The position numbers were made by a program, and so were the translations under genes. Below, piece after piece: positions 16,491-60,045 of a DNA stretch of 64,000 nucleotides. Source of the stretch: Pristiophorus japonicus. Taxonomy: Eukaryota. Positions within the stretch are counted from its first letter, which is position 1. The number at the start of each line of letters is the position of its first letter. The stretch covers positions 186,001-250,000 of the forward strand of contig NW_027252090.1 in assembly GCF_044704955.1 (NCBI RefSeq), in the 5' to 3' direction. Below the pieces are notes generated by a model. That model was not told where the DNA came from and made no database searches. It saw only the letters and a program-made list of their open reading frames with translations.

Positions 16491-16637
16491 AGCTCTCCCA
16501 GAACCACAGTGACAATGCACACACCGATCTTTAGTCATCCATTTTACATTTGTTAATGGTCGCCATTTGATGTTAACACTGGGAGATTGATTACAGAGAC
16601 CGACTACTTTCGAATTTAACGTTAGCTGCTTAAAGGT

Positions 16638-27249: not shown

Positions 27250-27600
27250 GCAATAAAACCGATAACTCTAATCAAATTACACTTTTACCATTGAAGAATC
27301 AAATTAAATATGTTTGCCGGTGTTGTTGATGCACTTCAGTCCCTCGGGCACCCACCTCTCATGGAAGGCCGAGTACGTTCCGGTCGACACCGCGTGCTCC
27401 ATCTCCAGGGAAACCTTGGTTTGAACGTTTCCGCGGAAGAGAGGGAGGCAGCCGGGCTGAACGATCCTCTCGACCGTCCGCTGCCTGGACCAGCTGATGG
27501 TCCACTTGGCCATGTCCCGGAGCAGTCCGACGACGAGGATTCTAACCTCCCGCTCCGCTCCGTACGAGGGGCCCAAAGATCAGGAGTGTACAGCCGGAGG
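27250..27600 (-). mobile_element. Tx1/L1-clade LINE 3' fragment (same family as 40305-41239)
   Basis: VSLEMEHAVSTGT..FHERWVPEG matches the C-terminus of the 40523-41374 ORF. Confidence 0.8.
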
Positions 27601-28379
27601 CAACAGATTTTTCCACTCTGTTTCTCGCTGAGAGACGCACTGAACTGTGACAGATCGGCATGGGACCAAATTGCAAATTCAAATTAAAGATTGGAAATAA
27701 ATTAAAGAAATCTGGCTGAACGAACATTTTATTTGTGAATGTTAATGATGCTTGTAATCCTGTTCCACCCATCAGAAGCACTGCCATTAATGCAGAACTT
27801 GAGATGGTGACAAAGGAGACACTGACTGGAACTAAATGATCAGCGGATATTTAACCAGCGTGGACAGAACAGAGCGAACAGAGTTTCGCTTCCTCTATTC
27901 AACTCCAAGTGAGAACAAAAGAGGAGAAATTGGCTGATAAAAGGAAGGAATAAAATAATAAAAAATGGACGGAATCTTTTATGATTTCTGAATTATTGCA
28001 TCACAGAAAATAACGGTAAAACATTCACAATAAATAAATATTCATGAACTTCAGGATCTCTGAGATGATTCCAGTGATGCGATGATGGGACTTCCCAGAT
28101 AGGGCTCCCATCTCGCTTCAGGAGTTCACACCAACATCTCCCTAGATTACACTGCTCCCTCCCTCAGTCTAGATATTTAAGGACCAGGTTCGCCTACATT
28201 ACACTACACCCACCTCTGTCGAGAAATTTCATTCGCAGGTTCGCCTAACTTCCAGTGCTCTCACGTCGGTCCAGGGATTTCATTCCGAGAGCCAAATATT
28301 TTACTCCGCTCACGCCTCTGTGATTGGACCTGAGTCTTTGGAAAGAACGTCTGATCTTGGCCGCAACTCCACTTCCGTG

Positions 28380-29130
28380 CCCACTCCACATAACCCTGAA
28401 CTCCCTTCTCGTTTAAAAATCAGTCTATCTCCATTTAATAAGATTCATGGAAGCTGCCTCCACAGCTCTCTGTCGAAGAGAATTCGAAAGATTCACGCCC
28501 CCCTGAGAGAATAAATTGCTTCTCATTTGTGATTTAAATGGGCGATCCGTTTTTATGAACCTATGTCCCCTGTTTCTAGATTTCCCCCACTAGATGAAAC
28601 ATCATCTCTGCGTCTACCCCATCAAGCCCCTATAGAATCTTACACATTTAAATAAGATCACCTCGTAGTTTTCTAAACTCCAATATATACACACCCATCC
28701 TGCTCAACCTTTATTCTTATGACAACATTTTCATCCCAGTAATCAACGTCGTGAACATTCTCTGAACTGCTTCCAATGAAAGTACTCCTTCCTTAACTAA
28801 AGTGATCAAACCTGTACACAATACTCCAGCTTTAGTCTTATCGACAACCTGCATTGTTGTAGCAGGACGTCTATATTCTGTCCCACTTGAAATAAAGCCA
28901 GACATTCTGCTGCCTTTTCTAATTGCTAGCTGTACCTACATGCTAACCTTCTGTGTTTTATGTACAACAACCATTGACCAATCTGGACCACAGCAATTTG
29001 GAATCCCTCCCCATTTAATAATAATTTGCTTATTTATTTTTCATAACAAAGAAGATAACGTCACATTTTCCACATCATACCCCATCTGCCATTGTTGTAG
29101 CCCACCCACTTCGATTATCTATATGCCTTT
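28380..29130 (-). mobile_element. Degenerate CR1 fragment
   Basis: SLEAVQRMFTTLITGM and other decayed ORF2 C-terminal motifs. Confidence 0.75.
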
Positions 29131-29194
29131 GCATATTTTTGCGTCCTTCGCACAACATGCTTTCACACTTATCTTTGTATTATCAGTGCTTCGA

Positions 29195-29610
29195 TGCGCG
29201 TAAACCTGGACAGTTCCATTGGGCGGGCCACATCTTCCGGATGCCTGACACAAGACTCGCAAGCAAGTGCACTTCTCGGAACTCCTACACCGGTGGGCAG
29301 AGAAAACTTTTGATGAAACGATCAAAGCCTCCTTGATAAAATGCAACATTCCAACCAACAGCTGGAAGTCCCTGGCCCATAACTGCCTGAAGTGGAGGAA
29401 GAGCATCCCGGAGGGCGCTGAGCACCTCGAGTCTCGTCGCCGAGAGTATGCAGAGACCAAGCGCAGGAGTAAGAAGGAGCGTGTGGCAAACGAGCCCCAC
29501 GCACCCTTTCCTTCAACCACTCTCTGTCCCACGTGTGACAGAGATTGTATTTCCGTATTGGACTGTTCAGTTACATAAGAACTCATTTTAGAGGAAGCAA
29601 GCCTTCCTCT
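29195..29610 (+). mobile_element. RTE-clade LINE 3' fragment
   Basis: HWAGHIFRMPDTRL, IKASLIKCNIP..W.SLA..WRK and a terminal CxxC (CPTC) motif. Confidence 0.85.
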
Positions 29611-29619
29611 ATTTAAAGA

Positions 29620-30230
29620 TTTAACATTTAATTTAGATTTTCAAAATTATGATGGGTTTTAAGAGAGCGAGTAAGTCACAAATGTTTCCAGTTGCACAAT
29701 GGTGCAGAACCAGAGGAGACAGGTTTAAGGTAATTGACAAAGGAACCACAGGAGAGATGGGAAGAGTGTTCTTTATGCAGTGAGCTGTTGCGATCAGGAA
29801 TGCAATTTGTGAGAACACGGTGGAAGTAGATTCAATCGTTATTTTCGAAAGGGAATTGCTTTATTCGTGGAAGGAGATATATTTACATTTTTCTGGCTAA
29901 AGAGTTGTACATCTGAGAGAGTTCTATCCTAGTGACGGCATGGACACAATGGATCGAGTTGACTTTCTTTGCTGTATTAATCTAACCTTCTATGAGCAAG
30001 AGACAGAGAGAGTGAAATGTAGAGAGACAGAATGAAACTGACAGAGAGTCAGAGAGGAAGTGAGAAACTTACAAAGTGCCAGAATGAATGAGTAAAAGAG
30101 AATAGAGAGAGTATGGCTGGAGGACGAATAGAGGGAAGTAAATTAACATTTATTGGGCAATTGGATAAATACTTGAAGGGGAAAAAATTGCTGGACTATG
30201 GGAATAGAGCAGGGGAATGGGACTAATTGG
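29620..30230 (+). mobile_element. Highly degenerate CR1 3' fragments
   Basis: Remnants such as CAGAACCAGAGGAGACAGGTTTAAGG and GGACTATGGGAATAGAGCAGGGGAATGGGACTAATTGG. Confidence 0.6.
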
Positions 30231-30649
30231 AGGGGGAGAAACCATGGTGGGAGCTGAACACATGGATGAGAATAATAAAAATGAAGCATTATTTAATCGG
30301 GATCCAGTTTTGGTCGAAGAGCAGATTGTTAATGGGTGAACAGGACTTAGAGGAGTTAGGATATGATCAACAAATTATTTAACTGAGCTCTAATTTATAA
30401 TGGACTGTAACTGCGAGGTGGGCAAGGAAAGCATTGCAATGGTCAATTACTGTTCAACAAAGTCACTGGGCTATTGAGACGAAGGAATGAGTTGGGCAGT
30501 ATTATGGAGATGATAGTGGGCAGGACCAGTGATTCAAAGGAGAAGAGGTCAGCACTGAACTCAGGGTAAAACAGAATGCCGAATTTGCGAGCAATCTCGA
30601 TCAGCCTCAGACATTGGCCACAGAGGGGACTAAGTCAATAGATATACAA

Positions 30650-31000
30650 TGTGACGAAGACTTCCAAAGATTTAAGTGACATACTCAGTAATACAGTGAA
30701 ATATAGATTAGAGTTATATTGCTGGATATTGAGACTTACGAGGAACACCAACAACACCAAAGAGTGTGGAATAAATTAAAAGAACACTCGTACAATTAAC
30801 GTATGCACAGTTAATAGCTGGATGCAGAGATGTCCCGGGAACAACAACTGAAGCAAAGATGAGAAAGCAATTTACAAGTCTAGTAATACAGCGAAACATG
30901 GTTTGCAGAGTTAATAGTTGGATACAGAGACTACCAGGAAAAAAAAATGCAGCAAGATGGTGGGAGTAAAATATGAGATAAGTAATACATTGAACCATGG
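30650..31000 (-). other. Tandem diverged ~95-100 bp copies of the exon-1 TM1/donor segment
   Basis: Units end FFFPG|GTAGTC (30935), VVVPG|GGACAT (~30836) and VVGVP C|GTAAGTC (30740), each followed by TCTC..ATCCA(A/G)C..ATTAACT-like sequence; a partial further copy lies near 30650-30710. Confidence 0.7.
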
Positions 31001-31026
31001 TTACTGGAATAACGAGATAGACTTAC

Positions 31027-31186
31027 CAGCAAAACCAACAACAGCAAGGACGGGATAGTAAATGTATTGAATAATACGAAATGCAAAACGCATTCGCAAT
31101 ACGAATGGTAGTTCCTCATAATGTGCAACAAGATAGTTAAAATACAAGATGAAACTCTTGCCATTTGTTGTAACATTCCAATCCAT
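31027..31186 (-). pseudogene. GPR139-like GPCR exon 1 (N-terminus and TM1)
   Basis: ATG at 31186; MDWNVTT...IIQYIYYPVLAVVGFA; phase-1 donor G|GTAAGT at 31027/31026 joins exon 2 in frame (G+TT AAC = V-N). Confidence 0.85.
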
Positions 31187-31782
31187 TTTTTTCAGATTCT
31201 GATTATTGTTGTAACATTCGAATCTACTGTTCTCAGATTCCGACTCGCTCTCTATGGAGCAGTGCGATGATCGCTGTTCGTGCCAGAGGTAATGCTCTCA
31301 ACTGTGACTATGGGGCAACACATTGAAAGGAGTGCCTTATTAATATGAGCGAGAATCACTCCAGTGACACAATTCTGTAAATAGAGACTTATATTAATTA
31401 CAGTCACTGAACAACCTGCTTCTGTAAACCCGTGGAGACTGATATTAATTACAGTCCTGAACAAACATTTTCAATTAACCCCTTCAATCCAACACTTTAT
31501 GTACCACAATAAGTTAGATCTCCTGGAGTAGTTTTGATCACCTGGATAAGTCGGGGCGGAATGTTGCCAGATACTTTTCCCGAAATTGTCCTCGATTTTA
31601 AATAGTTTTTTGCCTCTGCCGGGAGATCACATGGCTCCGGTTGGTTTGGAGTGTAGAATATTTCAGTTTAAGGTGTGTCACAGTTGTGTGGGGCAGTCTG
31701 CTTGTGCTTGGTGATCTTTACGTTTCCTCCATTGTTAATGGTTCAAAAGATTACATGTAAGCTTCAGGGCTGCTGACCGATG

Positions 31783-32562
31783 GGACATCAGTCATTGAAG
31801 GTTGGCATGCAGGTACAGCAGGCGGTTAAGAAAGCAAATGGCATGTTGGCCTTCATAGCGAGGGGATTTGAGTACAGGGGCAGGGAGGTGTTGCTGCAGT
31901 TATACAGGGCCTTGGTGAGGCCACACCTGGAGTACTGTGTACAGTTTTGGTCTCCTAACCTGACGAAGGACATTCTTGCTATTGAGGGCGTGCAACGAAG
32001 GTTCACCAGACTGATTGCCTGGATGGCGGGACTGACCTATCAAGAAAGACTGGATCAACTGGGCTTGTATTCACTGGAGTTCAGAAGAATGAGAGGGGAC
32101 CTCAGAGAAATGTTTAAAATTCTGACGGGGTTAGACAGGTTAGATGCAGGAAGAATGTTCCCAATGTTGGGGAAGTCCAGAACCAGGGGACACAGTCTAA
32201 GGATAAGGGTTAAGCCATTTAGGACCGAGATGAGGAGTAAAGTCTTCACCCAGAGGGTGGTGAACCTGTGGAATGTTGTACCACAGAATGTTGTTGAGGC
32301 CAATTCACTAAATATATTCAAAAAGGAGTTAGATGAATCCTTACTACGAGGGGAATCAAGGGGTATGGTGAGAAAGCAGGAATGGGGTACTGAAGTTGCA
32401 TGTTCAGCCATGAACTCATTGAATGGTGGTGCAGGCTAGAAGGGCCGAATGGCCTACTCCTGCACGTATCTTCTATGTTTCTATGTGAGTCTTTGTCGGC
32501 CGTTGCGGACACGATGGGCCGGAAATGGCCTCCTGTGCTGTAAATTTCTATGTTTCTATGTT
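31783..32562 (+). mobile_element. CR1 LINE 3' fragment, followed by a second short CR1-type 3' end
   Basis: 219-aa ORF2 C-terminal ORF; two (TTCTATGT)n tails at ~32470 and ~32546. Confidence 0.93.
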
Positions 32563-32639
32563 TCCCTATTACTAGTGCGAATGGGATGTATGAGTGTTGC
32601 TGAGTGAAGGATTGATGGAAATAGCTCAGGCCAGAATCA

Positions 32640-33500
32640 TTAATCCTCCTTGGATATGTCAGTGGTGACAGAGGACTGGAGGTTCGCAAATGGTGCACCC
32701 TGTTCAAAAAAGGAAAGCGGGATAACATCTGTAGCTACAGGCCAGTCAGACTAACGTCTGTGGTGGGGAAACTTCTAGAGGCCATAATCCGGTATGAAAT
32801 TATCTGTCAGTTGGAAAAAACTGGATTAATAAATGACAACCGGCACAAATTGTGTTAATGTTGAAGTGTATCTGAAAAACCTGATTCAGTTTTTTGATGT
32901 AATAACCTAACGGTTTGATGAGAGGAGTGCAGCTGATGTTGTGAATAACGACTTTCCAATGGCGTTTGATAAAATGTCACTTCATCGACTTGATAGGGAA
33001 ACTGAACCTCATGGAATTAAAGGGAGAGTAGCTGTGTGGATACAACATTGGCACCGGAACAAATAACAGAGAGTAGTGGTGAAAAATTGGCGTTCAGACA
33101 GAAGGGAAGTATACAGTGTTGAAACCTAGAGTTCTATATTAGTAGCAGTGCTCTTTCTGATAGAGATTAATAGCCAGGACCTAAGTCTAAAGGCATAATT
33201 TCAAATTTGCAGATGTCACGAAACTCAGAAATGCAGTAAGCAGTGGGGAGCACAGCAGACTTCAGGAGCACAGCGATAGTCTGGTTAAATGGAGACACAT
33301 GGCAGGTAAAATTAAACATGTGTGAAGTGATACATTTTGGGAAGGAACATGACAAGAGGCAATACAAGTTAAAAAATAAATGTTTTAAATGGTGTGTTGG
33401 TGCAGAGACACCTGGGAGTCGATGTGCACAAATCTTTGAAGGTGCCAGGGCAAGTTAATAAAACTGTTAAAAACGCAGGAAGAATCTTTGACTTTATGAA
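32640..33500 (+). mobile_element. Old degenerate CR1 RT fragment
   Basis: GAGGACTGGAGG..GCAAAT, TACAGGCCAGTCAG, GACTTTCCAATGGCGTTTGATAA and WQVKLNMCEVIHFG. Confidence 0.75.
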
Positions 33501-33504
33501 TCAT

Positions 33505-33890
33505 CGCGTATGGTAGCAAAGTGATTGTGCTACTGTACTAATGATCCAGAGACCTGGAGTAAAGATCCAATGGCATGAGTTCAGATCGCACCAGCTTTGC
33601 AATTTAAGGTGAATTAAATAAATCTCGAATTAAAATATTGTGTCAGCAATGGTGACCGTGTGGATCTCGATTGTCATTACCCGTCCAGTTCAAAAACGTG
33701 TTTTCGGGATGTAAATCACCCGCCTTTACGTAGACTGGCATAAATATCACCCCAGTCCCACAGCAATATGGTTAACTCTAAATAGCCCTCTCGATGTATC
33801 GATGCATTCACCAGCAGCGTTAAGGTGCAATTTGGGATGGACAATAAATGCTGCCCACACCACCGATTCACACATAATGAAGGTACAATA
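33505..33890 (+). mobile_element. Degenerate tRNA-derived shark SINE
   Basis: A-box/B-box-like head (TGGTAGCAAAGTG...GAGTTCAGATC), body CCCACAGCAATATGGTTAACTCT, and GGGATGGACAATAAATGCTG near the 3' end; resembles a common elasmobranch SINE as recalled, not database-checked. Confidence 0.65.
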
Positions 33891-33979
33891 AAAATCTGTT
33901 AAACATCGGTTTATCTCTGCATGACGATTCGGCAGCACACATTAGGAAAGCCTTGGAGAAGGTGTGGAAGAGATTTAAT

Positions 33980-34692
33980 CACCATCATAGGCAGTACCTC
34001 GAAATCGGGGATTGCTTGCTTCAACTCTAAAAGTGAGTTCTTCGGTGATTGAACATATATGGGAATTACGGTCTCTGTACCAGGTCGGGTAGATAATGGT
34101 AGAGGGAAAGGATGGGTGGGACTGGTTTGCCGCACACTCCTTCCGCTCTCTGCGCTGGTTTGCTGCATGCTCTTGGCGACGAGACTCGAGGTGCTCAGCG
34201 ACCTCCTGGATGCTCTTCCTCCATTAGTGCAGTCTTTGGCCAGGGACTCCCAGCTGTGAGTGGGAATGTTGCTCTTTTTCAAGGAGGCTTTGAGGGTATC
34301 CTTGCAACGTTTGCTGTGCCCACGTGGCGCCTGTTTGTCTTGTAGGAGTTCCAAGTAGAGCGCTTGCTTTGCGAGTCTCGTTTCAGGCATGCGGACAATG
34401 TGGCCCGCCCAGCGGAGCTGATCAATTGTGCTCAGTGCTTCGCTGTGGGGATGCTGGCCTGATCAAGGGCGCTAACGTCTGACATCCCAAGGGATCTGCA
34501 GGATCTTGAGGAGCCATAGGTATTTATCCAGTAATTTGTGGTAACTACTTCATACTATCCACGTTTGTGATCCGTAAAGTAGGCTGGCTATGTCTACATT
34601 CCCGTAGACCATGTGCTTGGTGCCAGATTTTATGGCGTGATCTTCCAACACTCTCTTCCTCAGGTGACCGAAGGCTGCGCTGGTGCACTGGT
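33980..34692 (-). mobile_element. RTE-clade LINE 3' fragment
   Basis: MPETRLAKQALY.EL..KRCKDTLKASLKKSNIP..WESLA; CATCATAGGCAGT tail. Confidence 0.87.
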
Positions 34693-35004
34693 ACCCGCAG
34701 AGAGACTTATAAGGAGACATAAGCAACTGTGATTTTTCCCGTTCGATCAGAGAATATTAACGTGAGATTTAATAGAGGTTTTTAAGACTATGAGGGCTTT
34801 GGATAAAGTAATTGAATAGAAACTCTGCCAGTGGTAAAAGAGTTGTTTACCAGAGGGAAGAGTTTTACGAAAATTAGCAGAGGGTAGATGAGGAGAATTT
34901 GTCTTACACTGCGAGTTTGCATGACTTGGATTGTTCTCGATGAAAATGGGATGGAAGCAGATTTAACAATAACTTTTAAAATTTTCAGATGATATAAAGA
35001 TTAG

Positions 35005-35918
35005 TGGGAAATCGGTTTGTGGAGAGGACACAGAGAGGCTACAAAGAGATTTCGATAAGTTCAGCGAATGGGCTAAGGTTTGGCAAATGGAATACAATGT
35101 CGGAAAATGTGGGGTCATCCACCTTGGAAAAAAAAACAGTAAAAGGGAATATTATTTGAATGGGAAGAAATTATAACATGCTGCGGTAGAGAGGGACCTG
35201 GGGGTCCTTGTGCATGATTCTCAAAAAGTTAGTTTTCAGGTGCAGCAGGTAATCAGGAAGGCGAATGGCATGTTGGCCTTCATTACGAGAGGGATGGAAT
35301 ACAAATGCAGGGAGGTCCTGCTGCAACTGTACAGGGTATTGGCGAGGCCGCACCAGGAGTACTGCGTACAGTTCTGGTCACCTTACTTAAGGTAGGATAT
35401 ACTAGCTTTGGAAGGGGTGCAGAGACGATTCACTAGGCTGATCCCGGAGATGAGGGGGTTACCTTTTGATGATAGATTGAGTAGACTGGGTCTTTACTCG
35501 TTGGAGTTCGGAAGGATGAGGGGTGATCTTATGGAAAAATGTAAAATAATGAAAAGGATAGACAAGATAGAGGTAGAGATGTTGTTTCCACTGGTCGGGG
35601 TGACTAGAACTAGGGGGCACAGCCTCAAAATACGGGGGGTGCAATTTAAACGGAGTTGAGAAGGAATTTCTTCTCCCAGAGGTTTGTGAATCTGTGGAAT
35701 TATCTGCCCAAGGAAGCAGTTGAGGCTAGCTCATTGAATGAAATCAAATCACAGATAGATAGATTTTTAACCATTCAAGGAATTAAGGGTTATGGGGAGA
35801 GGATGGGTAAGTGGAGCTCAGTCCACAATCAGATCAGCCATGATATTGTTGATTGGTGGAGCAGGCTCGAGGGGCTAGATGGCGTACTCCTGTTCCTAAT
35901 TCTTATGTTCTTATGTTC
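35005..35918 (+). mobile_element. CR1 LINE 3' fragment (same subfamily as 39005-41950, uninterrupted at the Tx1 site)
   Basis: QVQQVIRKANGMLAFI, QRRFTRLIPEM; (TTCTTATG)n tail. Confidence 0.93.
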
Positions 35919-36989
35919 AACTGTAATTGGAATCAATACTGGAATTCCGGCATTTGAAGGGATCTGGGAACATAATAGGCCTGTGGGGCTGATTGAATAG
36001 CTCGATCACAGAGCCTGGAGCAGCATGATGAATCGAATGGTCTCTTCTGTGCTGTATGATTCTGTGGTCCTGTGTTAACAGAAGCCATTGACTCTTTGTC
36101 TCGTGTGTGGAATCGAGGCTGTGCTCTTTTTGAGCCTGTTTCTAATCGTTACTTGTGCTCTGATAAATGCAATAGCGGAAAACCAAGCACAGTTTGAAAA
36201 AGAGTTTAAAAAAACTGAAATCATGAAATTATTATGAGACCAAAAATCGGGCCATGATGATAAATTCGCCACCACTAAATCCAATGAGGATTTCAGGAGA
36301 AGCCTCTGTGCCCAGAGAGGTGAGAATGGGGAACCCATCACCAGAGGCAGTGGTTGAGGCGATTAGTACAGAACCATTTGATGGGAAGCGAGATAAACAA
36401 ATCAGGCAGAAAACATTAGAAGCTTCTGCTAATAGGGTAAGATGCAGAGTTGTGGGGATTGTGTGGGGGAAGGCTGGTGGTGTGTGTGCTGCATAAATGG
36501 AGCAGTCGGTCCGAATGTCTGCTTTGTGTGCTGTACGTGATATATCATTTGCTGAGCGGAGCATGAGCCCCGCTCTGATCACATCCCGCGCCGGGATTCA
36601 ATCCACGCATTATAAATCATTGCTCTGATTCCTATTACATTATTTGTATCTATTTCCTCTCAGTATATCAGGGATAAATGTAACTAAATCACAGATGAAG
36701 GTTGCAGCAGAAGAGAAGCTCGGGCAGGAGGGCAGACAGTCAAAGTTAAGAAGGTGCAAATCACGATGGAGACAGAATATGATGCCACCGATGCTTCAAT
36801 CGCAACACTCAGCGCAGAGGAGTGAAGGAAGTGCCTGAGGAACCCGAAACCCAGCCAGAGACAGAAACTACCAGGGTGAACAGAATGAGTTTTGTAATAA
36901 TACGACTGACCAACAAAAGTGCTGCACCTGTGTTAAATGCTCAGCAATTTGAGGCGTGGATAATGAGAACCAGTTCAGGTTAAATTGTT

Positions 36990-37590
36990 CCACCGGCAGG
37001 TACAGCACGGGATTAGATACACAGTAAATTTCTCTCTGCACCGTCCCATCAAACACACCCAGAGCAGGTACAGGGGGTTAGATACAGAGTAAATTTCTCT
37101 CTATACTGTCCCATCAAACACTCCCAGGGCAGATACAGGGGGATAGATACAGGGTAAAGCTCCCTCTACACTGTCCCATCAAACACTCCCAGGGCAGGTA
37201 CAGGGGATTGGACACAGAGTAAAGCTCCCTCTATACTGTCCCATCAAACACTCCCAGGGCAGGTACAGGGGGTTGGACACAGAGTAAATTTCTCTCTACA
37301 CTGGCCCATCAAACACGCCCAGGCCAGGAAAAGCACGGGATTAGATACAGAGTAAAGCTCCTTCTTCACCGTCCCATCAAACACTCCCAGGGCAGGTACA
37401 GCACAGGTTAGATAAAGATTAAAGCTCCCTCTATAATGCCCATCAAATACTTCCAGCGCAGGAACAGCACCGGTTACATTTAGAGTAAACTTCCCTCTAC
37501 ACTGTCCCGATCAAACACTCCCAGGTCAGGTACAGCGGGTTAGATACAAAGGTAATCTCCTGCACAATATCCAATCAAACATTCCTAGGA
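36990..37590 (-). repeat. 65/68-bp minisatellite array, diverged, minus orientation
   Basis: Repeated GTCCCATCAAACACTCCCAGGGCAGGTACAG...TTAGATACAGAGTAAA. Confidence 0.92.
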
Positions 37591-37594
37591 AAGG

Positions 37595-38740
37595 TGTACA
37601 GACTGATACAAAATATTTGTTCAGTGTTTTTGCATTCTCCATATTCCCCATTACTAATTCACCGGCTTGTCCTCTTAGGCACCAACATTTACTTTAGCCA
37701 TTCTTTTCCTTTTCATGTACATATTGAAAACTCTTGCTATCTGAGTTTTATAGATCGTGCTAGTTTACTTTCACAGTCTAACTTCCCTTTCTTCATCATT
37801 TTCAGTCGTTCTTTGCTGGCTTTTCAAAGATTCCCAGGCTTCTGTCCTTCCACTAGTTTTGGCCACTTTGTATGCCCCTGTTTTTAACAGGATACCATCC
37901 TTTATTTCTTTCGTTAGCCACGGATCGCTATCCTTTCTCTTAAACCTTTTCCTCCTCACTGGAATATATTTTTCTTGGAGTTGTGAAATATCTCCTTAAA
38001 TATAGACCACTGTTCATCAATCGTCCTAGAATTTAACTATATTCCCAGTCCACTTTGACCAATTTTGTCCTCATATCTTCATTGTCTATTTTATTTAATC
38101 TTAGTACGCTGGCTTGAGATCCAACTTTCTCACCCTCTATCTGAATTAGAATTTCAATCATGTGATGATCACTCATTCCAAGGGGATCCTTTACAAGGAG
38201 ATTGTTTGTTGACCCAGATCTAAGATAACCTGCCCCCTGGTTGGATCCGTTCTATACTGCTCAAGGAACCCTTCCCATATACACTCTGTGAACTCCTCCT
38301 CAAGGCAACCTGATCAATTTCATTTGTCCAAAGAATATGGAGGTTAAAATCACCCATGATTATTGTTGTTCCCATTTTACAAGCCCCCACTATTTCCTGC
38401 TTTATGTTCCGATCAACAGAGTTGCTACTGTTGGGGGGCCTATAGACTATGCCCACCTGTGACTTTTTCCCCTTATTGTTCCTTATCTCCAGCCAAACTC
38501 TTTCAACATCCTGATCGTTTGAGCCAGTATCGTTTCTTACTATTGCAGTGATTCCATCCTTCATCAATAGAGCTACCTCACCTCCGTTTCCTTTCTGTCT
38601 GTCCTTCAGGATTGTCAAGTACCCCTGAATATTTAATTCCCAGTCCTGGTCGCCTTGCAACCACTTCTCTGTAATGGCTATCAGATCATACCCATTTTCA
38701 TCTATTTTTGCAGTCAACTCATCTATTTTATTACAAATGC
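37595..38740 (-). mobile_element. CR1 ORF2 5' fragment (AP endonuclease and linker)
   Basis: YDLIAITEKWL, GEVALL, VYRPPNS, IMGDFN and PWLTKEIK motifs. Confidence 0.9.
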
Positions 38741-38879
38741 TTTACAAATGTTGTATTCCGCCCAGCAACAAACCCAGGACGCGAAGGTTGGAAAATACCC
38801 AGACTTACAGCGATGCCGGGAGATCCACAGGCGACAATTCCAGCAAGAATATCGGGAACATCCTCACATCTCCCACAAT

Positions 38880-39004
38880 TGTGTCCTGGTCACACCGGGT
38901 CTGAGCAACGCTCCCAACAATAAGGTCCTGATCATCCCGGGTCTGAGCGGGGCTCCTCACAATCAGGTCTTGATCATCCCGGGTCTGAGCCACCCTCCGC
39001 ACAA
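38880..39004. repeat. Three tandem 42-bp repeats
   Basis: GGTCCTGATCATCCCGGGTCTGAGC.....CTCC..ACAAT x3; translates as VLIIPGLSxxPHN. Confidence 0.85.
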
Positions 39005-41950
39005 TATAAATGCGTATAAGGTGGCCAAGGTTAGTGGGAAACTAGAGAATTGGGAAAATTTTAAGCAAAAGCAAAGAATGACTAAAAAAGTAATAAAGAA
39101 ATGGAAGATATATTATGAAGGGAAACTTGTGCAAAACATAAAAACAGATAGTAAAAGCTTTTACAGATATGCAAAACTGAAAAGAGTGACTAAAGTAAAT
39201 GTTGTTCCCTTAGAAGATGAAAAGGGGGATTTAATAATGGGAAATGTGGAAATGCCTGAGATCTTAAACAATTATTTTGCTTCCGTCTTCACAGTGGAAG
39301 ACACAAAAACCATGCCAAAAATTGCTGGTCATAGGAATTTGGGAAGGGAGGACCTTGAGATGATCACTATCATGAGGGAGGTAGTGCTGGGCAGACTAAT
39401 GGGACTCAAGTTAGACAAGTCCCCTAGTCCTGATGAAATGCATCCTAGGGTATTAAAAGTGATGGTGGAAGATATAGCAGCTGCATTTGTTATAATCCAC
39501 CAAAATTCTCTGGACTCTGGGGAGGTACCAGCAGATTGGAGAGCAGCTAATGTAACGCCTCTGTTTAAAAAAGGGGGCAGGCAAAAGGCAGGTAATTGTA
39601 GGCCGGTTAGTTTATCATCTGTAGTGGGGAAAATGCTTGAAACTATCATTAAGGAAGAAATAGCGGGACATCTGGATAGGAATAGTGCAATCAAGCAGAT
39701 GCAGCATGGATTCATGAAGGGGAAATCATGTTTAACTAATTTACTGGAATTCTTTGAGGATATAACGAGCATGGTGGATAGAGGTGTACCGATGGATGTG
39801 GTGTATTTGGATTTCCAAAAGGCATTCGATAAGGTGCCACACAAAAGGTTACTGCAGAAGATAAAGGTCCGTGGAGTCAGAGGAAATGTATTAGCATGGA
39901 TAGAGAATTGGCTGGCGAACAGAAAGCAGAGAGTCGGGATAAATGGGTCCTTTTGCGGTTGGAAATCAGTGGTTAGTGGTGTGCCACAGGGATCGGTGCT
40001 GGGACCACAACTGTTTCCAATATACGTAGATGACCTAGAAGAGGGGGCAGAGTGTAGTGCAACAAAATTTGCAGATGACACTAAGCTTAGTGGGAAAGCG
40101 GGTTGTGTAGAGGACTCAGAGAGGCTTCAAGGAGATTTGGATAGGTTAAGCGAATGGGCTAAGGTTTCGCAGATGGAATACAATGTCGGAAAGTATGAGG
40201 TCATCCACCTTGGGAAAAAAAACAGTAAAAGGGAATATTATTTGAATGGGGAGAAATTACAACATGCTATGGTGCAGAGGGACCTGGGGATCCTTGTGCA
40301 TGAAACTCTTTTTGGAGTTTACCTGTAAAACAAAAACATTAATCGGTGCCACCTGCCCTGGATGACACACCAGACATTTACAAGGCCCTCTTTTTTTTTT
40401 TCCTTTTTTTTTTTTTATGTGCACTACAATAACATTTTCCTTTTTCCAGTGCCCCCTATAAAAGGGGAGGGGGACACTAAAAGCACCGGCAATTAAAACA
40501 AATTAAACTTTAAAACGTAAAATCAAATTAAAATTTGGTTGCCGGGCGTGATGATGCACTCTCGTCCCTCCGGTGCCCACCTCTCGCGGAAGGCCGCGAG
40601 CGTACCGGTGGACACTGCGTGCTCCATCTCCAAGGACACCCTGGACTGGATGTAAGAGCGGAAGAGAGGCAGGCAGTCAGGTTGAACGACCCCCTCGACC
40701 GCCCGCTGCCTGGACCGGCTGATGGCACCCTTGGCCGTGCCCAGGAGCAGTCCTACGAGGAGGCCTTCGGACCTACCCGCTCCCCTCCGCACAGGGTGCC
40801 CAAAGATCAGGAGAGTGGGAATGAAGTGCAGCCAGAATTTCAGGAGCAGCCCCTTCATATAATGGAACAGGGGCTGCAACCTCGTGCACTCAATAAAAAC
40901 ATGGAACACGGTCTCCTCCAGACCGCAGAAATTGCAGGCGGCCTGGGAGTCCGTGAACCGGCTTAAAAATCTGTTGCACGGCACTGCTCCGTGCACCACC
41001 CTCCAGGCCAAGTCCCCGATGAATAGTGGGAGGACCCCTGCGTAGAGTGCCCTCCATCGGGGACCCCCGCCTCCTCCGGACGGCAAGATGGTATGCCATG
41101 GCGTGTCCGGACGGCAGGCGAGGATGGCAAAGTTGAGAGTGTGCAGGAGCAGCCCGTACAAGAAACCCCTCCGCGCCGAACTGAAAGGCACGGAGGGGAT
41201 TTCCCCGAGGCGCCTCAAGTTGGGAGGCGCCGGGCCCCGTCCCAAAAGTTTAGTTTGCAGGTGCAGCAGGTAATCAGGAAGGCAAATGGAATGTTGGCCT
41301 TCATTGCAAAAGGGATAGAGTACAAAAGCAGGGAGGTCCTGCTGCAACTGTAAAAGGTATTGGTAAGGCCGCACCTGGAGTACTGCGTGCAGTTTTGGTC
41401 ACCTTACTTAAGGAAGGATACACTAGCTGTGGAAGGGGTACAGGGACGATTCACTCGGCTGATTCGAGAAAAGAGGGGGTTACCTTATGATGATAGATTG
41501 AGTAGACTGAGTCTTTACTCCTTGGAGTTCAGAAGGATGAGGGGTGATCTTTTAGACATATTTCAAATCAGGAAATGGACAGACAAGATCGAGACAGAGA
41601 GGTTGTTTCCATTGTCGGGGGAGACTAGAACTCGGGGGCACAGCCTCAAAATACGGAGGAGCCAAATTAAAACCGAGTTGAGAAGGAATTTCTTCTCCCA
41701 GAGGGTTGTGAATCTCTGGAATTATCTGCCCATGGAAGCAGTTGAGGCTGGCTCATTGAATATTTTCAAGTCAAAGATAGATAGATTTTTAAGCAATAAG
41801 GGAATTAAGGGTTACGGGGCGAGCGCAGGTAATTGGAGCTGAGTCCACGACCAGATCAGCCATGATCTTATTGAATGGCGGAGCAGGCTCGAGGGGCTAG
41901 ATGGCCTAATCCTGTTCCTAATTCTTATGTTCTTATGTTCTTATGTTCTT
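39005..41950 (+). mobile_element. Relatively young CR1 LINE (linker, RT and 3' end), interrupted at 40304/41240
   Basis: About 430 open codons with KSPSPD, WRAANVTPLFKKG, QHGF, DFQKAFDKV, GVPQGSVLGP and FADD; resumes at 41240; (TTCTTATG)n tail. Confidence 0.96.
40305..41239 (-). mobile_element. Tx1/L1-clade non-LTR retrotransposon, 5'-truncated, nested antisense in CR1
   Basis: CCHC zinc knuckle CNFCGLEETVFHVFIEC preceded by DLAWRVVHGAV; stop at 40523, then ~220-nt 3' UTR; CR1 sequence is contiguous across the junctions (CATGAA|TCCCAAAAG). Confidence 0.88.
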
Positions 41951-43247: not shown

Positions 43248-43379
43248 ACCTCCGTTTGTTGGGGCCTTTTGTTTTGCTGGGAACGCCGATTTTATTTTTT
43301 TGAAAACGAAATGTATTTCCGATTTTGTGCAAATGGACCTTGCTGTGGGATTTCGGATAGGTTGTGTGCGGGAAGGAGG

Positions 43380-46300
43380 GCTCTGGGTTAGCTTGTGTGT
43401 GGGGGGTCTCGCTTAGGTTTTGTGGGGGTCTCGGTTAGGTTGTGTGTGTGAGTGGGTCTCGGTTAAATTGTGTGTGTGGGGAGGGTCTCGGTTAAATTGT
43501 GTGGGGGTGTATCGGTCAGGTTATGTGTGGTGGGGCTCAGGTTATGTTGTGAAGGTGGGGGGGTTATCGGTTAGGTTGTGTGGGGGGTCTCTCGGTTAGG
43601 TTGTGCTTGTAGCGGGGGGGGGGTCTCGGTTAGGCTATGTGTGTCGAGGGTCTCGGTTAGGTTATGTCTGGGGGGGTGTCACGGTTATGTTGCGTGTAGG
43701 GGGGGACACGATTAGGTTGTGTATGTGGGGGCACTCCGTTAGGTTGTTTGGGGGAGTCTCGGTTAGGTTGTGTGTGTGGAAGATCTCAATTAGTTTGTTT
43801 GTGGGCGGGGTCTCGGTTAGGTTGTGTGTGAGGGGGTTTCTCGGTTAGGTTGTGTGTGGGGGGGTTACGGTTAGGTTGTGTGTGAGGGGGTTTCTCGGTT
43901 AGGTTGTGTGTGGGGGGGGTCTCGGTTAGGTTGTGTGTGGGCGGGGTCACGGTTAGGTTGTGTGTGGGGGGTGGTTCGGTTCAGTTGTGTGTGTGGGGTG
44001 GTCTCGGTTAGGTTGTGTGTGGGGGAGTCTCAGTTCGGTTGTGTGTGGGGGGGGGTCTCGGTTAGGTTGTGTGTGGGGGGTCACGGTTAGGTTGTGTGTG
44101 GGGGGTTTCGGTTAGGTTGTGTGTGTGGGGTTATCTCGGTTAGGTTGTGTGTGAGGGGTCACGGTTAGGTTGTGTGTGGGGTTTTCGGTTAGGTTGTGTG
44201 TGTGGGATTATCTCGGTTAGGTTGTGTGTGGGGGGTTTCGGTTAGGTTGTGTGTGTGGGGTTATCTCGGTTAGGTTGTGTGTGGGGGGTCACGGTTAGGT
44301 TGTGTGTGTGGGGGGGTGCTCGGTTAGGTTGTGTGTGTGGGGGGTCACGGTTAGGTTGTGTGTGGGGGGGTCACGGTTAGGTTGTGTGTGTGGGGGGTTT
44401 CGGTTAGGTTGTGTGTGTGGGGGGGGGGTCACGGTTAGGTTGTGTGTGTGGGGTTATCTCGGTTAGGTTGTGTGTGGGGTTATCTCGGTTAGGTTGTGTG
44501 TGTGTGGGGTTATCTCGGTTAGGTTGTGTGTGGGGTTATCTCGGTTAGGTTGTGTGTGGGGGGTCTCGGTTAGGTTGTGTGTGGGGTTATCTCGGTTAGG
44601 TTGTGTGTGTGGGGGGGTCTCGGTTAGGTTGTGGGTGTGGGTGGTCTCGGTTAGGTTGTGTGTGTGGGGGGTCACGGTTAGGTTGTGTGTGTGGGGGGTC
44701 TCGGTTAGGTTGTGTGTGTGGGTGGTCTCGGTTAGGTTGTGTGTGTGGGTGGTCTCATGTTAGGTTGTGTGTGTGGGGGGTCACGGTTAGGTAGTGTGTA
44801 TGGGTGGTCTCGGTTAGGTTGTGTGTGTGGGGGTCACGGTTAGGTTGTGAGTGGGGGGGGATCTCGGTTAGGTTGTGTGTGTGTGGGGGGGTCACGGTTA
44901 GGTTGTGTGTGGGGTGGTCACGGTTAGGTTGTGTGTGGGGGGGTCACGGTTAGGTTGTGTGTGGGGTGGTCACGGTTAGGTTGTGTGTGGGGGGGTCACG
45001 GTTAGGTTGTGAGTGGGGGGGGATCTCGGTTAGGTTGTGTGGGGTGGGGGTCTCGGTTAGGTTGTGTGGGGGTGGTCTCGGTTAGGTTGTGTGGAGGGGG
45101 GTCTCGGTTAGGTTGTGTGGGTGAGGGTCTCGGTTAGGTTGTGTGGGGGGGTCACGGTTAGGTTGTGTGGAGGGGGGTCTCGGTTAGGTTGTGTGGGTGG
45201 GGGTCTCGGTTAGGTTGTGTGGAGGGGGGTCTCGGTTAGGATGTGTGTGGGGGGGTGTCTCGGTTAGGTTGTGTGTGGGGGGGTCTCGGTTAGGTTGTGT
45301 GTGGAGGGGGGTCTCGGTTAGGTTGTGTGGAGGGGGGTCTCTGTTAGGTTGTGTGTGGGGGGGTCTCGGTTAGGTTGTGTGTGTGGGGGGTCTTGGTTAG
45401 GTTGTGTGTGTGGGGGGTCTCGGTTAGGTTGTGTTTGGGGGGGTCTCGGTTAGGTTGTGTGTGCGGGGGGGTTCTCGGTTAGGTTGTGTGTGTGGGGGGT
45501 CTCGGTTAGGTTGTGTTTGGGGGGGTCTCGGTTAGGTTGTGTGTGGGGGGGTTCTCGGTTAGGTTGTGTGTGTGGGGGGGTTACGGTTAGGTTGTGTGTG
45601 TGGGGGGGTCTCGGTTAGGTTGTGTGTGGGGGGGGTCTCGGTTAGGTTGTGTGTGGGGGGGTCTCGGTTAGGTTGTGTGTGGGGGGGTCTCGGTTAGGTT
45701 GTGTGTGGGGGGGGTCTCGGTTAGGTTGTGTGTGTGGGGGGGGTCACGGTTAGGTTGTGTGTGTGGGGGGGGTCACGGTTAGGTTGTGTGTGGGGGGTCT
45801 CGGTTAGGTTGTGTGTGGGGGGGGTCACGGTTAGGTTGTGTGTGGTTGGGGGGTCACGGTTAGATTGTGTGGGGGGGGGGTCACGGTTAGGTTGTGTGTG
45901 GTTGGGGGGTCACAGTTAGGTTGTGTGTGGTTGGGGGGTCACGGTTAGGTTGTGTGTGGTTGGGGGGTCACAGTTAGGTTGTGTGTGGTTGGGGGGTCAC
46001 GGTTAGGTTGTGTGTGGTTGGGGGGTCACGGTTAGATTGTGTGGGGGGGGGTCTCGGTTAGATTGTGTGGGGAGGGGTCACGGTTAGGTTGTGTGTGTGG
46101 GGGGTCTCGGTTAGGTTGTGTGTGTGGGGGGGTTTCGGTTAGGTTGTGTGTGTGGCTGGTGGTCTCGGTTAGGTTGTGTGGGGGTGGTCTCGGTTAGGTT
46201 GTGTGTGTGGGGGGTTTCGGTTAGGTTGTGTGTGTGGGAGGTCTCGGTTAGGTTGTGTGGGGAGGGGGTCTCGGTTATTTTGTGTGTGTGTGGTGGGGGG

Positions 46301-46440
46301 TCTCGTATAGTTTATGTGTGGGGGGGGTCCTCGGTTAGGTTGTGTGTGGGGTCTCTGTTATGTTGTGTGTTTGTGGGGGTGTCTCGGTTCGGTTGTGTGT
46401 GTGTGGGGTTTCGGTTATGTTGTGTGTGGGGGGTGGGCTC
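43380..46440. repeat. G/T-rich ~26-30 bp variable satellite (GGGGGTCTCGGTTAGGTTGTGTGTG)
   Basis: Conserved CGGTTAGGTTGTGT core with variable (GT)n and G-run lengths; degenerate at both edges. Confidence 0.96.
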
Positions 46441-46937
46441 TTTAATTTTTGTGGCTTTTATGGATCGAATAGTCGGGTCAATTCGTTGTTGGTTATTTTA
46501 GGTCCTAGTGCCGATTAAAATCCTCAGGCTGGAATTAAGGTTCGGCCGAGGGTGCAGTGTTGTTCCCGGCGAAGGGATTTGTCTCCGGATTTTGAAGGTG
46601 GTTGATTTTAAATTGCTATTACCTTCTTTCGGGAAGATATATTGATGTACGTTGATGTGCTGATTTGTATTTTGAAGATTTTAAATGTTATTAGTTGTTT
46701 TTTGTTATTTTTGTATTTATTTTAACAATGTCTGTATTTGGGTGAGGATTGTTTTAATAATTAATTCGGTTTTAGGATGGGGAAGGTGGGATTATTTTAA
46801 TTGTTAATAGTCTGAGCGGGTTGATCAGAGTCCATGCCACGTTGGAGGACCACGTGGGGGGAGGGGGAGGGAGAATTTAGGAAGCACTTTTTCCTTTGAT
46901 TGTTTTAAAATTTATTTTCTAAAATCATGTGTGTGTC

Positions 46938-54809: not shown

Positions 54810-56135
54810 CCATATCTAATCCGTGCTGTAGCTGCCCTTGCATTGTGTGGTGGAACTGTGTAGATGGTGTTTTGCTCTGTATCTAACCCGTGCTGTACCT
54901 GCCCTGGGAGTGTGTTGGTACATTGTAGATGGGTCTGTACTCTCTGTATCTAACCCATGCTGCACATGCTCCGGGAGTGTTTGACGGGACAGTGTTGAGG
55001 GAGCTTTACTCTGTATCTAGCCCGTGCTGTAACTGCCCTGGGAATGTTTGATGACACAGTGCAGAGAGAGCTTTACTCTGTATCTAACCACCTGTACCTG
55101 CCCTGGGAGTGTTTGATGGGACAGTGTAGAGGGAGCTTTACTCTGTATCTAACTCCCTGTACCTGCACTGGGAGTGTTTGATGGGACAGTGCAGAGGGAG
55201 CTTTACTCTGTATCTAACCCCCTGTGCCTGCCCTGGGAGTGTTGATGGGAAAGTGTAGAGGGAGCTTTACTCTGTATCTAACTCCCTGTACCTGCCCTTG
55301 GAGTGTTTGATGGGACAGTGTAGCCGGAGATTTACTCTGTATCTAACCCCCTCTACCTGCCCTGGGAGTGTTTGATGGGACAGTGTAGAGGGAGCATAAC
55401 TCTATATCTAACCCCCTGTACCTGCCTTGGGAGTGTTTGATGGGACAGTGTAGAGGGAGCTTTACTCTGTATCGAACCCGTGCTGTACCTGCCCTGGGAG
55501 TGTTTGATGGGACAGTGTAGCCGGAGATTTACTCTGTATCTAACCCGTGTTGTACCTGCCCTGGGAGTGATTGATGGGACAGTGTAGCCGGAGATTTACT
55601 CTGGATCTAACCCGTGCTGTACCTGCCCTGTGAGTGTTTGATGGGATAGTGCAGAGAGAGCTTTAATTTGTATCGGACCCGTGCTGTACTTGCCTTGGTA
55701 GCGTTTCATGGGAAAGTGTAGAAGGAGCTTTTCTCTGTGTTTAACCAGTGCTGCACCTGCCCTGGGAGTGTTTGATGGGACAGTGTAGAGGGAGCTTAAC
55801 TCTGTATCTATCCCCGTGCTGTACTTGCCCTGGGAGTGTTTAATGGGACAGTGTCGAGGGAGCTTTACTCTGGGTCTCATCTGTGCTGTGCCTGCCCTGG
55901 GAGTGTTTGATGGGACAGTGTAGAGGCAGCTTTACTCTGTATCTAACCCCCTGTACCTGCCCTGGGAGTGTTTGATGGGACAGTGTCGAGGGAGCTTTAC
56001 TCTGTATCTAACCCCCTGTACCTTGCCCTGGGAGTGTTTGATGGGACAATGTAGAGGGAGCTTTACTCTGTATCTAACCCCCTGTACCTACCCTGGGAGT
56101 GTTTGATGGGACAGTTTAAAAGGAGATTTACTCTG
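54810..56135 (+). repeat. 65/68-bp minisatellite array (~20 units)
   Basis: Same unit as 16638-18240. Confidence 0.96.
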
Positions 56136-58599: not shown

Positions 58600-60045
58600 G
58601 GTATCTCTCTCTGGTGGGAATTGAGGGGTACAGTGGCTTAACAATTGCCGTTTCCCCTCACTGTGTTGGAGGATCGGAAACACAATCAGTTAACAATTGC
58701 CCTTTCGCCTCTCTCTGATGGGGCAGTGGGAGGTACAGGGGGTTAACAATTGCCCTTTCCCCTCTCTCTGGTGGGGCAGTGGGGGTACAGTGGTAAACAA
58801 TTGCCCTTTCCCCTCCCCCTGATGGGGCAGTGGGAGGTACAGGGGGTTAACAATTGCCCTTTCCCCTCCCCCTGATGGGGCAGTGTGAGGTACAGTGGGT
58901 TGACAATTGACCTTTCCACTCTCTCTCTGGTGGGGCAGTGTGAGGTACAGTGGGTTGACAATTGACCTTTCCCCTCTCTCTGGTGGGGCAGTGTGAGGTA
59001 CAGGGGGTTGACAATTGGCCTTTCCACTCTCTCTCTGGTGGGGCAGTGTGAGGTACAGTGGGTTGACAATTGACCTTCCCCCTCTCTCTGCTGGGGCAGT
59101 GTGAGGTACAGGGGGTTGACAATTGACCTTTCCCCTCCCTCTGTTGGGGCAGTGGTATTACAATGAGTTAACAGTTGACCTTTCCCCCCTCCCTAGTGCG
59201 GTAGTGGGAGTACAGTGGGTTAACGATTGAACTTTCCCCTCCCCCTGGTGGGGCAGTGGAGGGTACAGGGGGTTAACAATTGTCCTTTCCCCTCTGGTGG
59301 GGCAGTGGAGGGTACAGGGGGTTAACAATTGACCTTTCCCCTCTGGTGGGGCAGTGGGGGGGGGTACAGGGGGTTAGCAATTGACCTTTCCCCTCGCTCT
59401 GTTGGGGCAGTGGGAGTTGCAGGGGGTTAACAATTGACATTTCCCCTCTCTCAGGTGGGGTAGTGGGAGTACCGTGGGTTAACAATTGACATTTCCCCTC
59501 CCCCGGGTGGGTCAGTGGGTGGTACAGGGGGTTAACAATTGACCTTTCCCCTCTGGTGGGGCAGTGGGGGGTACAGGTGATTAACAATTGACCTTTCCCC
59601 TCTGGTGGGTCAGTGGTGGGTACAGGGGGTTAACAATTGACTTGTTCTCTCTCTCTGTTGGGTCAGTGGGGGGTACAGGGGGTTAACAATTGACTTGTTC
59701 TCTCTCTCTGGTGGGGCACTGGGGGTACAGGGGATTAACAATTGACTTGTTCTCTCTCTCTGTTGGGGCAGTGGGAGGTATAGGGGGTTAACAATTGACC
59801 TTTCCCCTCCCCCGGGTGGGTCAGTGGGGGGTACAGGTGATTAACAATTGACCTTTCCCCTCTGGTGGGTCAGTGGTGGGTACAGGGGGTTAACAATTGA
59901 CTTGTTCTCTCTCTCTGTTGGGTCAGTCGGTGGTACAGGGGGTTAACAATTGACTTCTTCTCTCTCTCTGGTGGGGCAGTGGGGGTACAGGGGTTTAACA
60001 ATTGACTTGTTCTCTCTCTCTGGTGGGGCAGTGGGAGGTACAGTT
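58600..60045. repeat. ~50-54 bp minisatellite in the CH4-TM1 intron
   Basis: Unit GGGGTTAACAATTGACCTTTCCCCTCTCTCTGGTGGGGCAGTGGGGGGTACA with variants. Confidence 0.94.

Follow-up and report, generated by a model that had tools for sequence, protein, structure and literature searches.

A young Tx1-clade LINE of Pristiophorus japonicus with antisense insertion at a single CR1 base and a candidate E-box signal upstream of its nick

A Tx1 element inside CR1

The DNA studied here is a stretch of 64,000 nucleotides of Pristiophorus japonicus (NCBI RefSeq assembly GCF_044704955.1, contig NW_027252090.1, positions 186,001 to 250,000, forward strand), referred to as the window, in which a CR1 LINE (long interspersed nuclear element) is interrupted by a 5'-truncated LINE of the Tx1 clade. 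The comparison of this insertion with its relatives throughout the genome suggests, with a probability of about 0.72, that the inserted element belongs to a young Tx1 family, inserting antisense at one CR1 base, that a protein reads an E-box together with T(T/A)(C/A) at the site, and that the 3' hairpin of the element is a start signal for the reverse transcriptase (RT). E-box is our name for the CANNTG hexamer upstream of the nick, a type of motif that is read by basic helix-loop-helix (bHLH) factors. The features of the window that are relevant here are the following, signed positions being counted from the nick and ORF standing for open reading frame.

39012-41940, + strand: the interrupted CR1 LINE as a whole (RVT_1)
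39012-40304, + strand: CR1 5' part, ORF2 reverse transcriptase region (Pfam RVT_1, E 7e-27)
40291-40304, - strand: target 14-mer TTCATGCACAAGGA, +1 to +14 of the nick (from the sequence and the duplication lengths)
40303-40320, - strand: terminal hairpin AAACUC-CAAAAA-GAGU(UU), a predicted fold, the final two bases being target T's
40305-41239, - strand: Tx1-clade LINE, 935 nt, 5'-truncated, from a source element of about 7,137 nt (Pfam zf-RVT)
40305-40522, - strand: Tx1 3' untranslated region (UTR), ending in GAGT, without poly(A)
40321-40330, - strand: U-tract/YAG-R-U motif UUUUACAGGU, the second 'mimic' block of the original prediction (counts over 334 termini)
40523-41239, - strand: C-terminal 238 codons and stop of Tx1 ORF2, CCHC zinc-knuckle region
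41240-41940, + strand: CR1 3' part (87% identity to 35219-35918)
41240-41249, + strand: CR1 -1 to -10 of the nick, TCCCAAAAGT; insertion is possible without it
41258-41263, + strand: E-box CAGGTG (CACCTG in the sense of the element), -24 to -19 of the nick, the probable upstream signal of the site
34978-35918, + strand: uninterrupted comparison CR1, with a degenerate site between 35218 and 35219 (+1 is A)
27270-27589, - strand: piece of another, more remotely related Tx1 family (79% identity), lacking this terminus

The original prediction had placed a Tx1 element in CR1 at 40295-41265; the insertion is confirmed and its real bounds are 40305-41239. The joint is blunt, as had been described, with CATGAA ending at 40304 and TCCCAAAAG starting at 41240, without duplication, deletion or poly(A). 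The RNA-sense 3' end has also been read correctly as UUUUACAGGU-AAACUC-CAAAAA-GAGU, the 3' UTR terminating in UUUUACAGGUAAACUCCAAAAAGAGU, and with the next two T's of the target the stem could become longer (40303-40320). The CR1 stretch 35210-35240 is not the empty reference that it had been taken for, since its sequence, CATGATTCTCAAAAAG, is a degenerate site. The self-comparison of the window gives 88.8% identity between CR1 40064-40303 and CR1 34978-35217. The target 14-mer is single at the window copy and duplicated at most other copies.

Both joints of the window copy are common to 8 of 30 loci fetched (window included), which identifies the window copy as one event amplified in a segmental repeat. 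The region 27270-41940 is a unit of this repeat, which is found again on several small contigs, where the two Tx1 pieces have much the same spacing (L001-L008, L091-L120). The second fragment had been regarded as uninformative, in agreement with the finding of the same joint in 30 of 30 fetched loci; these are copies of one event, and the use of this fragment as a covariation test is ruled out.

The full-length Tx1 units (~7.14 kb) carry ORF1 and ORF2. The ORF1 frame, upstream of ORF2, has a zinc knuckle CX2CX4HX4C (read by eye), and ORF2 (1,299 amino acids) matches the Pfam families Exo_endo_phos, RVT_1 and zf-RVT, the last with an E value of 6e-5, below the curated cut-off. An uninterrupted ORF2 frame of 1,304-1,306 codons, with YADD, is present in at least nine fetched copies. 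The similarity of ORF2 to the ORF2 of Xenopus Tx1L (YTX2_XENLA; 53% identity, residues 1-800, E 6e-275) is stronger than the similarity to human L1 ORF2p (E 6e-84), and its endonuclease (EN) domain is 46% identical to the Tx1L EN over 233 amino acids. Judged by the ORF2 domains (apurinic/apyrimidinic endonuclease (APE), RT, zinc knuckle) and by the similarity to YTX2_XENLA, the element belongs to the Tx1 clade. The CR1 content and the homologues fit a cartilaginous fish. A tree built from the final 1 kb of ORF2 (75 rows) is unrooted and does not root the termini.

Target specificity and the signal upstream of the nick

With a 3'-end pattern that is free of flanking sequence, 12,130 ends are found genome-wide, and none with reversed-pattern controls. 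Exactly TTCATGCAC, a 9-mer, follows 8,936 of these ends (73.7%); the intact CR1 site has 30,786 matches in the genome, some of which are regenerated 5' joints. In the sample used for the analysis of the joints (the first 100 ends on contig C1, in 78 regions) the CR1 site is matched at 11 or more of 13 nt at 88 of the 100 ends and at 67 of the 78 outermost flanks. These values bear out the suggestion of a CR1-specific Tx1 hyperparasite in the original prediction. The family is target-specific by the criterion of Kojima 2015, in which one sequence type makes up more than 20% of the flanks (PMC4494074, in excerpt); here this share is 73.7%.

The outer 5' joint lies in CR1 in 54 of the 78 regions (23 are without anchor and 1 is out of range), five of the 54 being extra segmental copies. 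A duplication, typically of about 14 nt, is seen at 40 of these 54 joints, 38 of them at an apparent 14-18 nt, the apparent end being at +14 to +24; of the others, seven end at -18 and seven between -11 and +2. The blunt joint of the window copy is therefore the exception, as most CR1 joints are duplicated. A -18 subfamily, with a distinct 5' region (~10% diverged), is found at five independent loci (L121, L124, L126, L144, L176, L177, L186), and its full-length copies all join CR1 at -18, which suggests that upstream CR1 sequence is present in the RNA. Within the initial 3.3 Mb of C1, a 34-nt stub with a 13-14-nt duplication (a 47-nt insert) occurs at four places in CR1 (L122, L123, L125, L127); these inserts are apparently segmental duplicates and not independent events. 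The contigs of four sequencing runs contain CR1, Tx1 and short pieces across the 3' joint, none with 31 letters on both sides, and were not used.

The insertions are located about 24 nt behind CAGCTG, CACCTG or CAGGTG, both in CR1 and at most of the stray sites examined, the E-box starting at a fixed distance of -24 ± 1. The discovery set consists of 45 stray sites (47 found, with one intra-Tx1 site and one duplicate Harbinger-type site dropped), and in the aligned pre-insertion flanks a CANNTG starts exactly at -24 in 20 of them; after de-duplication, 26 of 41 have the E-box at -25 to -23. For the fresh set 40 stray loci have been fetched, of which 31 have a duplication and 30 are left on dropping one Harbinger-type locus. 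In this set CAGCTG, CACCTG or CAGGTG is present at -25 to -23 at 21 of the 30 sites, as compared with 68 of 15,144 (0.45%) in the background, and at 17 of 25 when two shifted CR1, two Harbinger and one intra-Tx1 sites are removed by hand. The hexamers of the 71 stray sites are CAGCTG (21), CACCTG (14), CAGGTG (12), CAGATG (3), CACGTG (2), CATTTG (1) and none (18). Almost nothing else is conserved at these sites between -18 and -6 or beyond +4. In CR1, CACCTG is found at -24 in 33 of 38 filled 5' joints; the empty CR1 sites met by chance (n=8) are too few for a comparison of E-box status. The type of terminus does not predict the type of E-box (90 copies, 56 site contexts).

A second preferred site has the flank TTCACAGCCAC... 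(L251, L260, L263-L265, L298, L299, L304, L307), carries CAGCTG or CAGGTG at -24, and supplied 5 of the 30 off-target loci of one set. It is probably part of a Harbinger-type transposon, with a Myb/SANT-like ORF (Pfam E 2e-4, which is under the cut-off) some 160-180 nt further downstream. Two further insertions (L275, L315) are at the foot of the hairpin of another copy (GCAGA/TAAACTC, the slash marking the joint).

The occurrence of the E-box in both orientations and with any RNA terminus, together with the CACCTG at -24 of CR1, makes it likely that the site is chosen by protein-DNA contacts. The sequence data point to a two-fold symmetric protein reader, which could be a host bHLH dimer or a dimer of a protein of the element. 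A more specific version, in which a host bHLH factor bound to the E-box tethers the LINE machinery 24 nt from the nick, homing to CR1 depends on the spacing between E-box and TTCA, and the tail is a captured, inverted copy of the site, is put forward only tentatively. It is also possible, and we regard this as similarly doubtful, that only ordinary endonuclease specificity is seen here, such that the EN alone reads a long CR1 sequence, of which the E-box is the best-kept part of the footprint, without a host factor. The purified Tx1L EN nicks almost only its own target, the Tx1D site (PMC1950540, in excerpt). The above-mentioned 46% identity between the two EN domains and the strong preference of CR1 over sites that have only the motif are also in agreement with this. 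However, the stray sites keep the motif two helical turns away from the nick, in either orientation, and such a distant symmetric motif would be more easily reconciled with a reader of two-fold symmetry than with a single small EN domain. A dimer, or another region of ORF1p or ORF2p, could still read the E-box, and to this extent the endonuclease explanation overlaps with the preferred one.

The 3' terminus: hairpin, resemblance to the target and priming

When read from the upstream anchor, the ACTC-loop-GAGT stem is kept in 223 of 229 termini, the loops being CAAAAA (104), AAAA (54), TAAAA (43) and others, 4-8 nt in length, and in every one of the 223 stem-bearing termini an A or a G stands opposite the first T of the flank. 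Copying begins exactly at GAGT. Tx1 stubs of 10-12 nt are found at insertion sites. Pieces of tRNA (Gly, Asp, Lys, Val), and pieces of another kind that we presume to be 5S-like, occur at the same site or joint (L070:1678-1751, L144:7633-7704, L295:228-300, L155:7384-7456, L365, L369), and some of these end in an 11-18-nt Tx1 stub. These tRNA and 5S-like pieces are template switches to RNA polymerase III (Pol III) RNAs. The short stubs and the stub fusions indicate that this end of the RNA is where copying starts, and that within the hairpin it frequently breaks off or changes to another template. Such abortive stops and template switches, in line with what is known of the ZfL2 stem-loops discussed below, suggest that the 3' hairpin is probably the start signal of the reverse transcriptase and not a guide.

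The original prediction had noted that two motifs of the terminus match, in swapped order, the CR1 sequence beyond the cut, and had proposed that pairing of the 3' motifs with the target may have a part in the choice of the site. For the window terminus this match is not significant, as its two-block score of 13 is reached by 36 of 916 background windows and by 87 of 1000 shuffles. The match does stand for the commonest terminus, whose score of 18 (18 nt) is reached by 0 of 916 windows and 0 of 1000 shuffles. When the best of 29 termini is considered, 18 of 2,734 background windows reach 18, including 14 with scores of 25-26, which are evidently unfiltered termini; without these, 4 of 2,720 windows are left, and the resemblance of the commonest terminus is still above chance. 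In one local alignment the terminus scores 8 against the target, a value that 38-43% of shuffles reach and that is not significant. As far as can be told from these comparisons, the resemblance to the target is real for some lineages, without steering the insertion.

That the RNA guides the choice, by pairing of UCCAAAAAG and UUU(A/G)CAGGU with the CR1 strand upstream of the nick, would be consistent with the 18-nt match of the commonest terminus in two blocks, with the complementarity of its CAGGU(G) block to the CR1 E-box and with the short RNA:target pairing that has been proposed for SART1 and R1 (PMC7265360, PMC2718515, both in excerpt). Nevertheless, it is very unlikely in view of the following. 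The scores of the 29 termini spread from 9 to 18, yet all these termini are on the same site, and termini with AAAA or TAAAA loops use this site too. Matching termini are not enriched on the target: among 246 termini, those with the matching loop are 32 on and 58 off target, versus 62 and 94 for non-matching ones (odds ratio 0.84), and those with matching TTTGCAGGT are 43 on and 90 off, versus 51 and 62 (odds ratio 0.58). The youngest termini, with AAAA loops, are without the CCAAAAAG block, two of the three such termini having 1.1-1.4 private changes per kb as compared with 2.4 for the best match. On the side of the DNA, CR1 variants without TTTTTGGGA are struck at the same base (for example with CTTCTGTCA or TTTTTGTGT upstream), and the stray sites are without the T-run at -9 to -5. 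The commonest stray E-box is the palindrome CAGCTG and both orientations occur, elements of the CAGAUA type being found at CAGCTG (7), CACCTG (4), CAGGTG (2) and CAGATG (1). Also, the swapped order of the two blocks would make their simultaneous pairing sterically implausible. The lack of enrichment at CR1 and the stray sites without T-run show that the resemblance does not guide the choice; of the proposed RNA:DNA pairing, a role in site choice is not upheld, and a pairing of a few U's with the end of the primer finds some support.

It could be asked whether the terminus is the relic of a CR1 target that was captured, as an inverted and permuted copy of the 27 nt at the insertion point, and to which the ACTC/GAGT stem was added later; the resemblance would then be a matter of history and not of function. 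By eye, the best terminus can be aligned with a tandem copy of this CR1 stretch if two mismatches and one gap of 2 nt are allowed, and it is these differences that create the stem; target-derived rearrangements are seen at R1 joints (PMC2718515, in excerpt). The clade that is nearest to the midpoint root and has the most private changes has TTTCAGAT, however, which is a poorer match, although this is a statement on an unrooted tree of a family that recombines. We consider this origin rather improbable, if compatible with the preferred explanation.

The U-tract-NYAG-RU block of the terminus also resembles what we take to be the consensus of a 3' splice acceptor. In the 334 termini the two tract positions are T in 334 and 333, the free N is G (208), A (81) or T (45), and the following positions are C/T in 332, A in 334, G in 333 and G/A in 333; TAAT is present 18-20 nt upstream in most of them. 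The block could thus be a splice acceptor or a U2AF-type binding site, and its likeness to the CR1 E-box a coincidence. This is unlikely: an acceptor 18 nt from the end has no evident function, and among the only 13 ends with a non-T-rich upstream sequence no evident spliced copy is found (0 of 13), a pattern from which T-rich donors would escape.

With respect to priming, the ends that are followed by a base other than T are only 27 genome-wide. Fourteen such ends have a clean duplication, and in ten of these a target T just upstream overlaps the last T of the element, six of the ten having the E-box at -25. One-T slips are common at the CR1 site. The bases after the terminus, compared for a possible division into a UUC read-through RNA and an RNA with U and poly(A), are TTC (888), T[ACG] (127) and TT[AGT] (75) with the same off-target filter; TAA is seen 156 times, unfiltered. 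It is possible that priming involves a short U:A pairing, probably with a read-through RNA, as has been proposed for R1 and SART1, and RNA pairing seems limited to these few priming bases.

Arrays, proposed mechanism and known systems

The 5' breakpoint is common to 70 of 98 adjacent truncated pairs in arrays, versus 11 of 2,194 unlinked pairs. Array neighbours are often as diverged as unlinked copies and have different termini. In 40 non-independent pairs the identical run that starts at the joint is longer than in comparisons of unlinked copies, at a mean quantile of 0.82. Of 14 long pairs, 10 have fewer private changes in the upstream than in the downstream member, 2 have more and 2 have equal numbers (p 0.039), and the upstream copy thus looks the younger one. 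The foreign spacers that some arrays contain (L187, L285) are a sign of RNA that ran through the spacers. At single non-CR1 sites, arrays of 7 to more than 12 copies occur (L285, at G000:C1:122072500-122079500, L274, L275, L286); in L285 the foreign spacer is of CR1 type, and the last copy apparently starts via an 8-nt pairing of TAAAAGAG with the target. The self-comparison of the window also reveals tandem arrays at 1-14601 (50-nt period, 14.6 kb), 16637-18385, 43344-46454, 54813-56135 and 58604-60044, the periods of the latter being ~65, ~27 and ~53 nt.

A mechanism can be envisaged in which ORF2p, acting by itself or tethered to a host bHLH dimer, makes a nick in the bottom strand at a site that is spaced from the E-box. 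The RNA would run on into U's (read-through UUCAUGC...), which would pair with the A's of the primer; this U:A pairing would make the joint more precise and may give CR1 an advantage over the remaining E-box sites. The second cut is usually located about 14 nt downstream, the window copy being a rare blunt case. As the flank E-box would survive the insertion, the outer 5' joint could be cut again, and the arrays would grow upstream, even at stray sites. The new cDNA would then anneal to the 5' end of the resident copy, which would account for shared 5' breakpoints with different tails.

Several findings weigh against this account. The E-box is missing from 18 of the 71 stray sites (no CANNTG at -27 to -22), and, because the stray sets have been selected on the bases +1 to +6, the T(T/A)(C/A) of the logo is to some extent a product of this selection, so that only the upstream signal is unbiased. 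The motif alone does not explain the share of CR1, about three quarters of the insertions; roughly 4 million sites of motif type are expected, as estimated from the 0.45% rate. The stability of the hairpin is not unusual when compared with shuffles (z -0.47, +0.82, +0.07), and none of the 229 termini has a two-sided compensatory change in the stem, which makes the pairing likely, not proven. Nor does the favoured model account for the likeness between the commonest terminus and the target. Finally, 11 of 40 array pairs (same-array pairs being non-independent) are closer than 95% of unlinked pairs, which suggests that part of the array units arose by simple duplication or as long chimeras.

Like Tx1L of Xenopus laevis, the family has an APE-RT-zinc knuckle ORF2 (with the identities given above) and uses a fixed site in another transposon, which for Tx1L is Tx1D, a piggyBac (PMC4494074, PMC1950540; here and below the comparisons refer to excerpts of the cited papers). 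Unlike in Tx1L, the target is a LINE (CR1 ORF2, antisense), and these excerpts describe no upstream E-box. The crocodilian Tx1-Mar, Tx1-8_Crp, Tx1-4_AMi and Tx1-9_AMi likewise prefer other transposons (Mariner, LTR (long terminal repeat) elements, Harbinger), and SINEU-3 forms tandem insertions with a 16-nt duplication between them; in the excerpts, however, no non-LTR target, upstream motif or copied 5' breakpoint is described for the crocodilian Tx1 elements, and SINEU is poly(A)-tailed, whereas the present family is without poly(A) (PMC4494074).

R1 of Drosophila and Bombyx is an APE LINE with precise 3' joints, 14-bp duplications and tandem arrays that grow at the 5' duplication, and its read-through RNA is proposed to pair with the primer; an R1 lineage with a fixed -9 deletion, explained by upstream target in the RNA, can be compared with the -18 subfamily (PMC2718515). 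R1 is of another clade, however, and its target is 28S rDNA; its stray sites share 4-9 bp around the cut and not a distant symmetric motif, and shared breakpoints among truncated array members are not described in the excerpts (PMC2718515). The stringent LINEs ZfL2-1 and ZfL2-2 have a 3' stem-loop that is bound by ORF2p, which is the likely role of the present hairpin, but they are of the L2 clade and their loop is read specifically, whereas the present loop varies freely over 4-8 nt (PMC4176376). Ty3 (via TFIIIB) and DGLT-A (via TFIIIC) likewise insert at a constant spacing from the binding motif of a factor, and they are the model for the tethered version of the present case; these are LTR elements, with an integrase and Pol III factors (PMC6101501), whereas the bHLH tether is a candidate. 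The combination of a LINE as target and a distant symmetric signal appears to set the present element apart from these systems. Neither a Tx1 that targets CR1 nor the E-box rule has been found in the open-licence literature, Repbase being outside this search.

The targeting of CR1 is solid, and the E-box rule is the most surprising and the most testable of the results. For site-specific APE-type LINEs, recognition of the target is commonly attributed to the endonuclease and to the bases around the cut. The six-base symmetric motif seen here, at two turns from the cut, raises the question whether a host transcription factor, or a dimer of the LINE's own protein, aims the LINE. Second-strand joining is a poorly understood step, and the roughly 12,000 ends, from many source lineages and with intact ORF2 copies, are a natural data set for it and for first-strand priming. 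With thousands of CR1 copies broken at a single base, such a LINE is also relevant to the shaping of CR1-rich, shark-like genomes.

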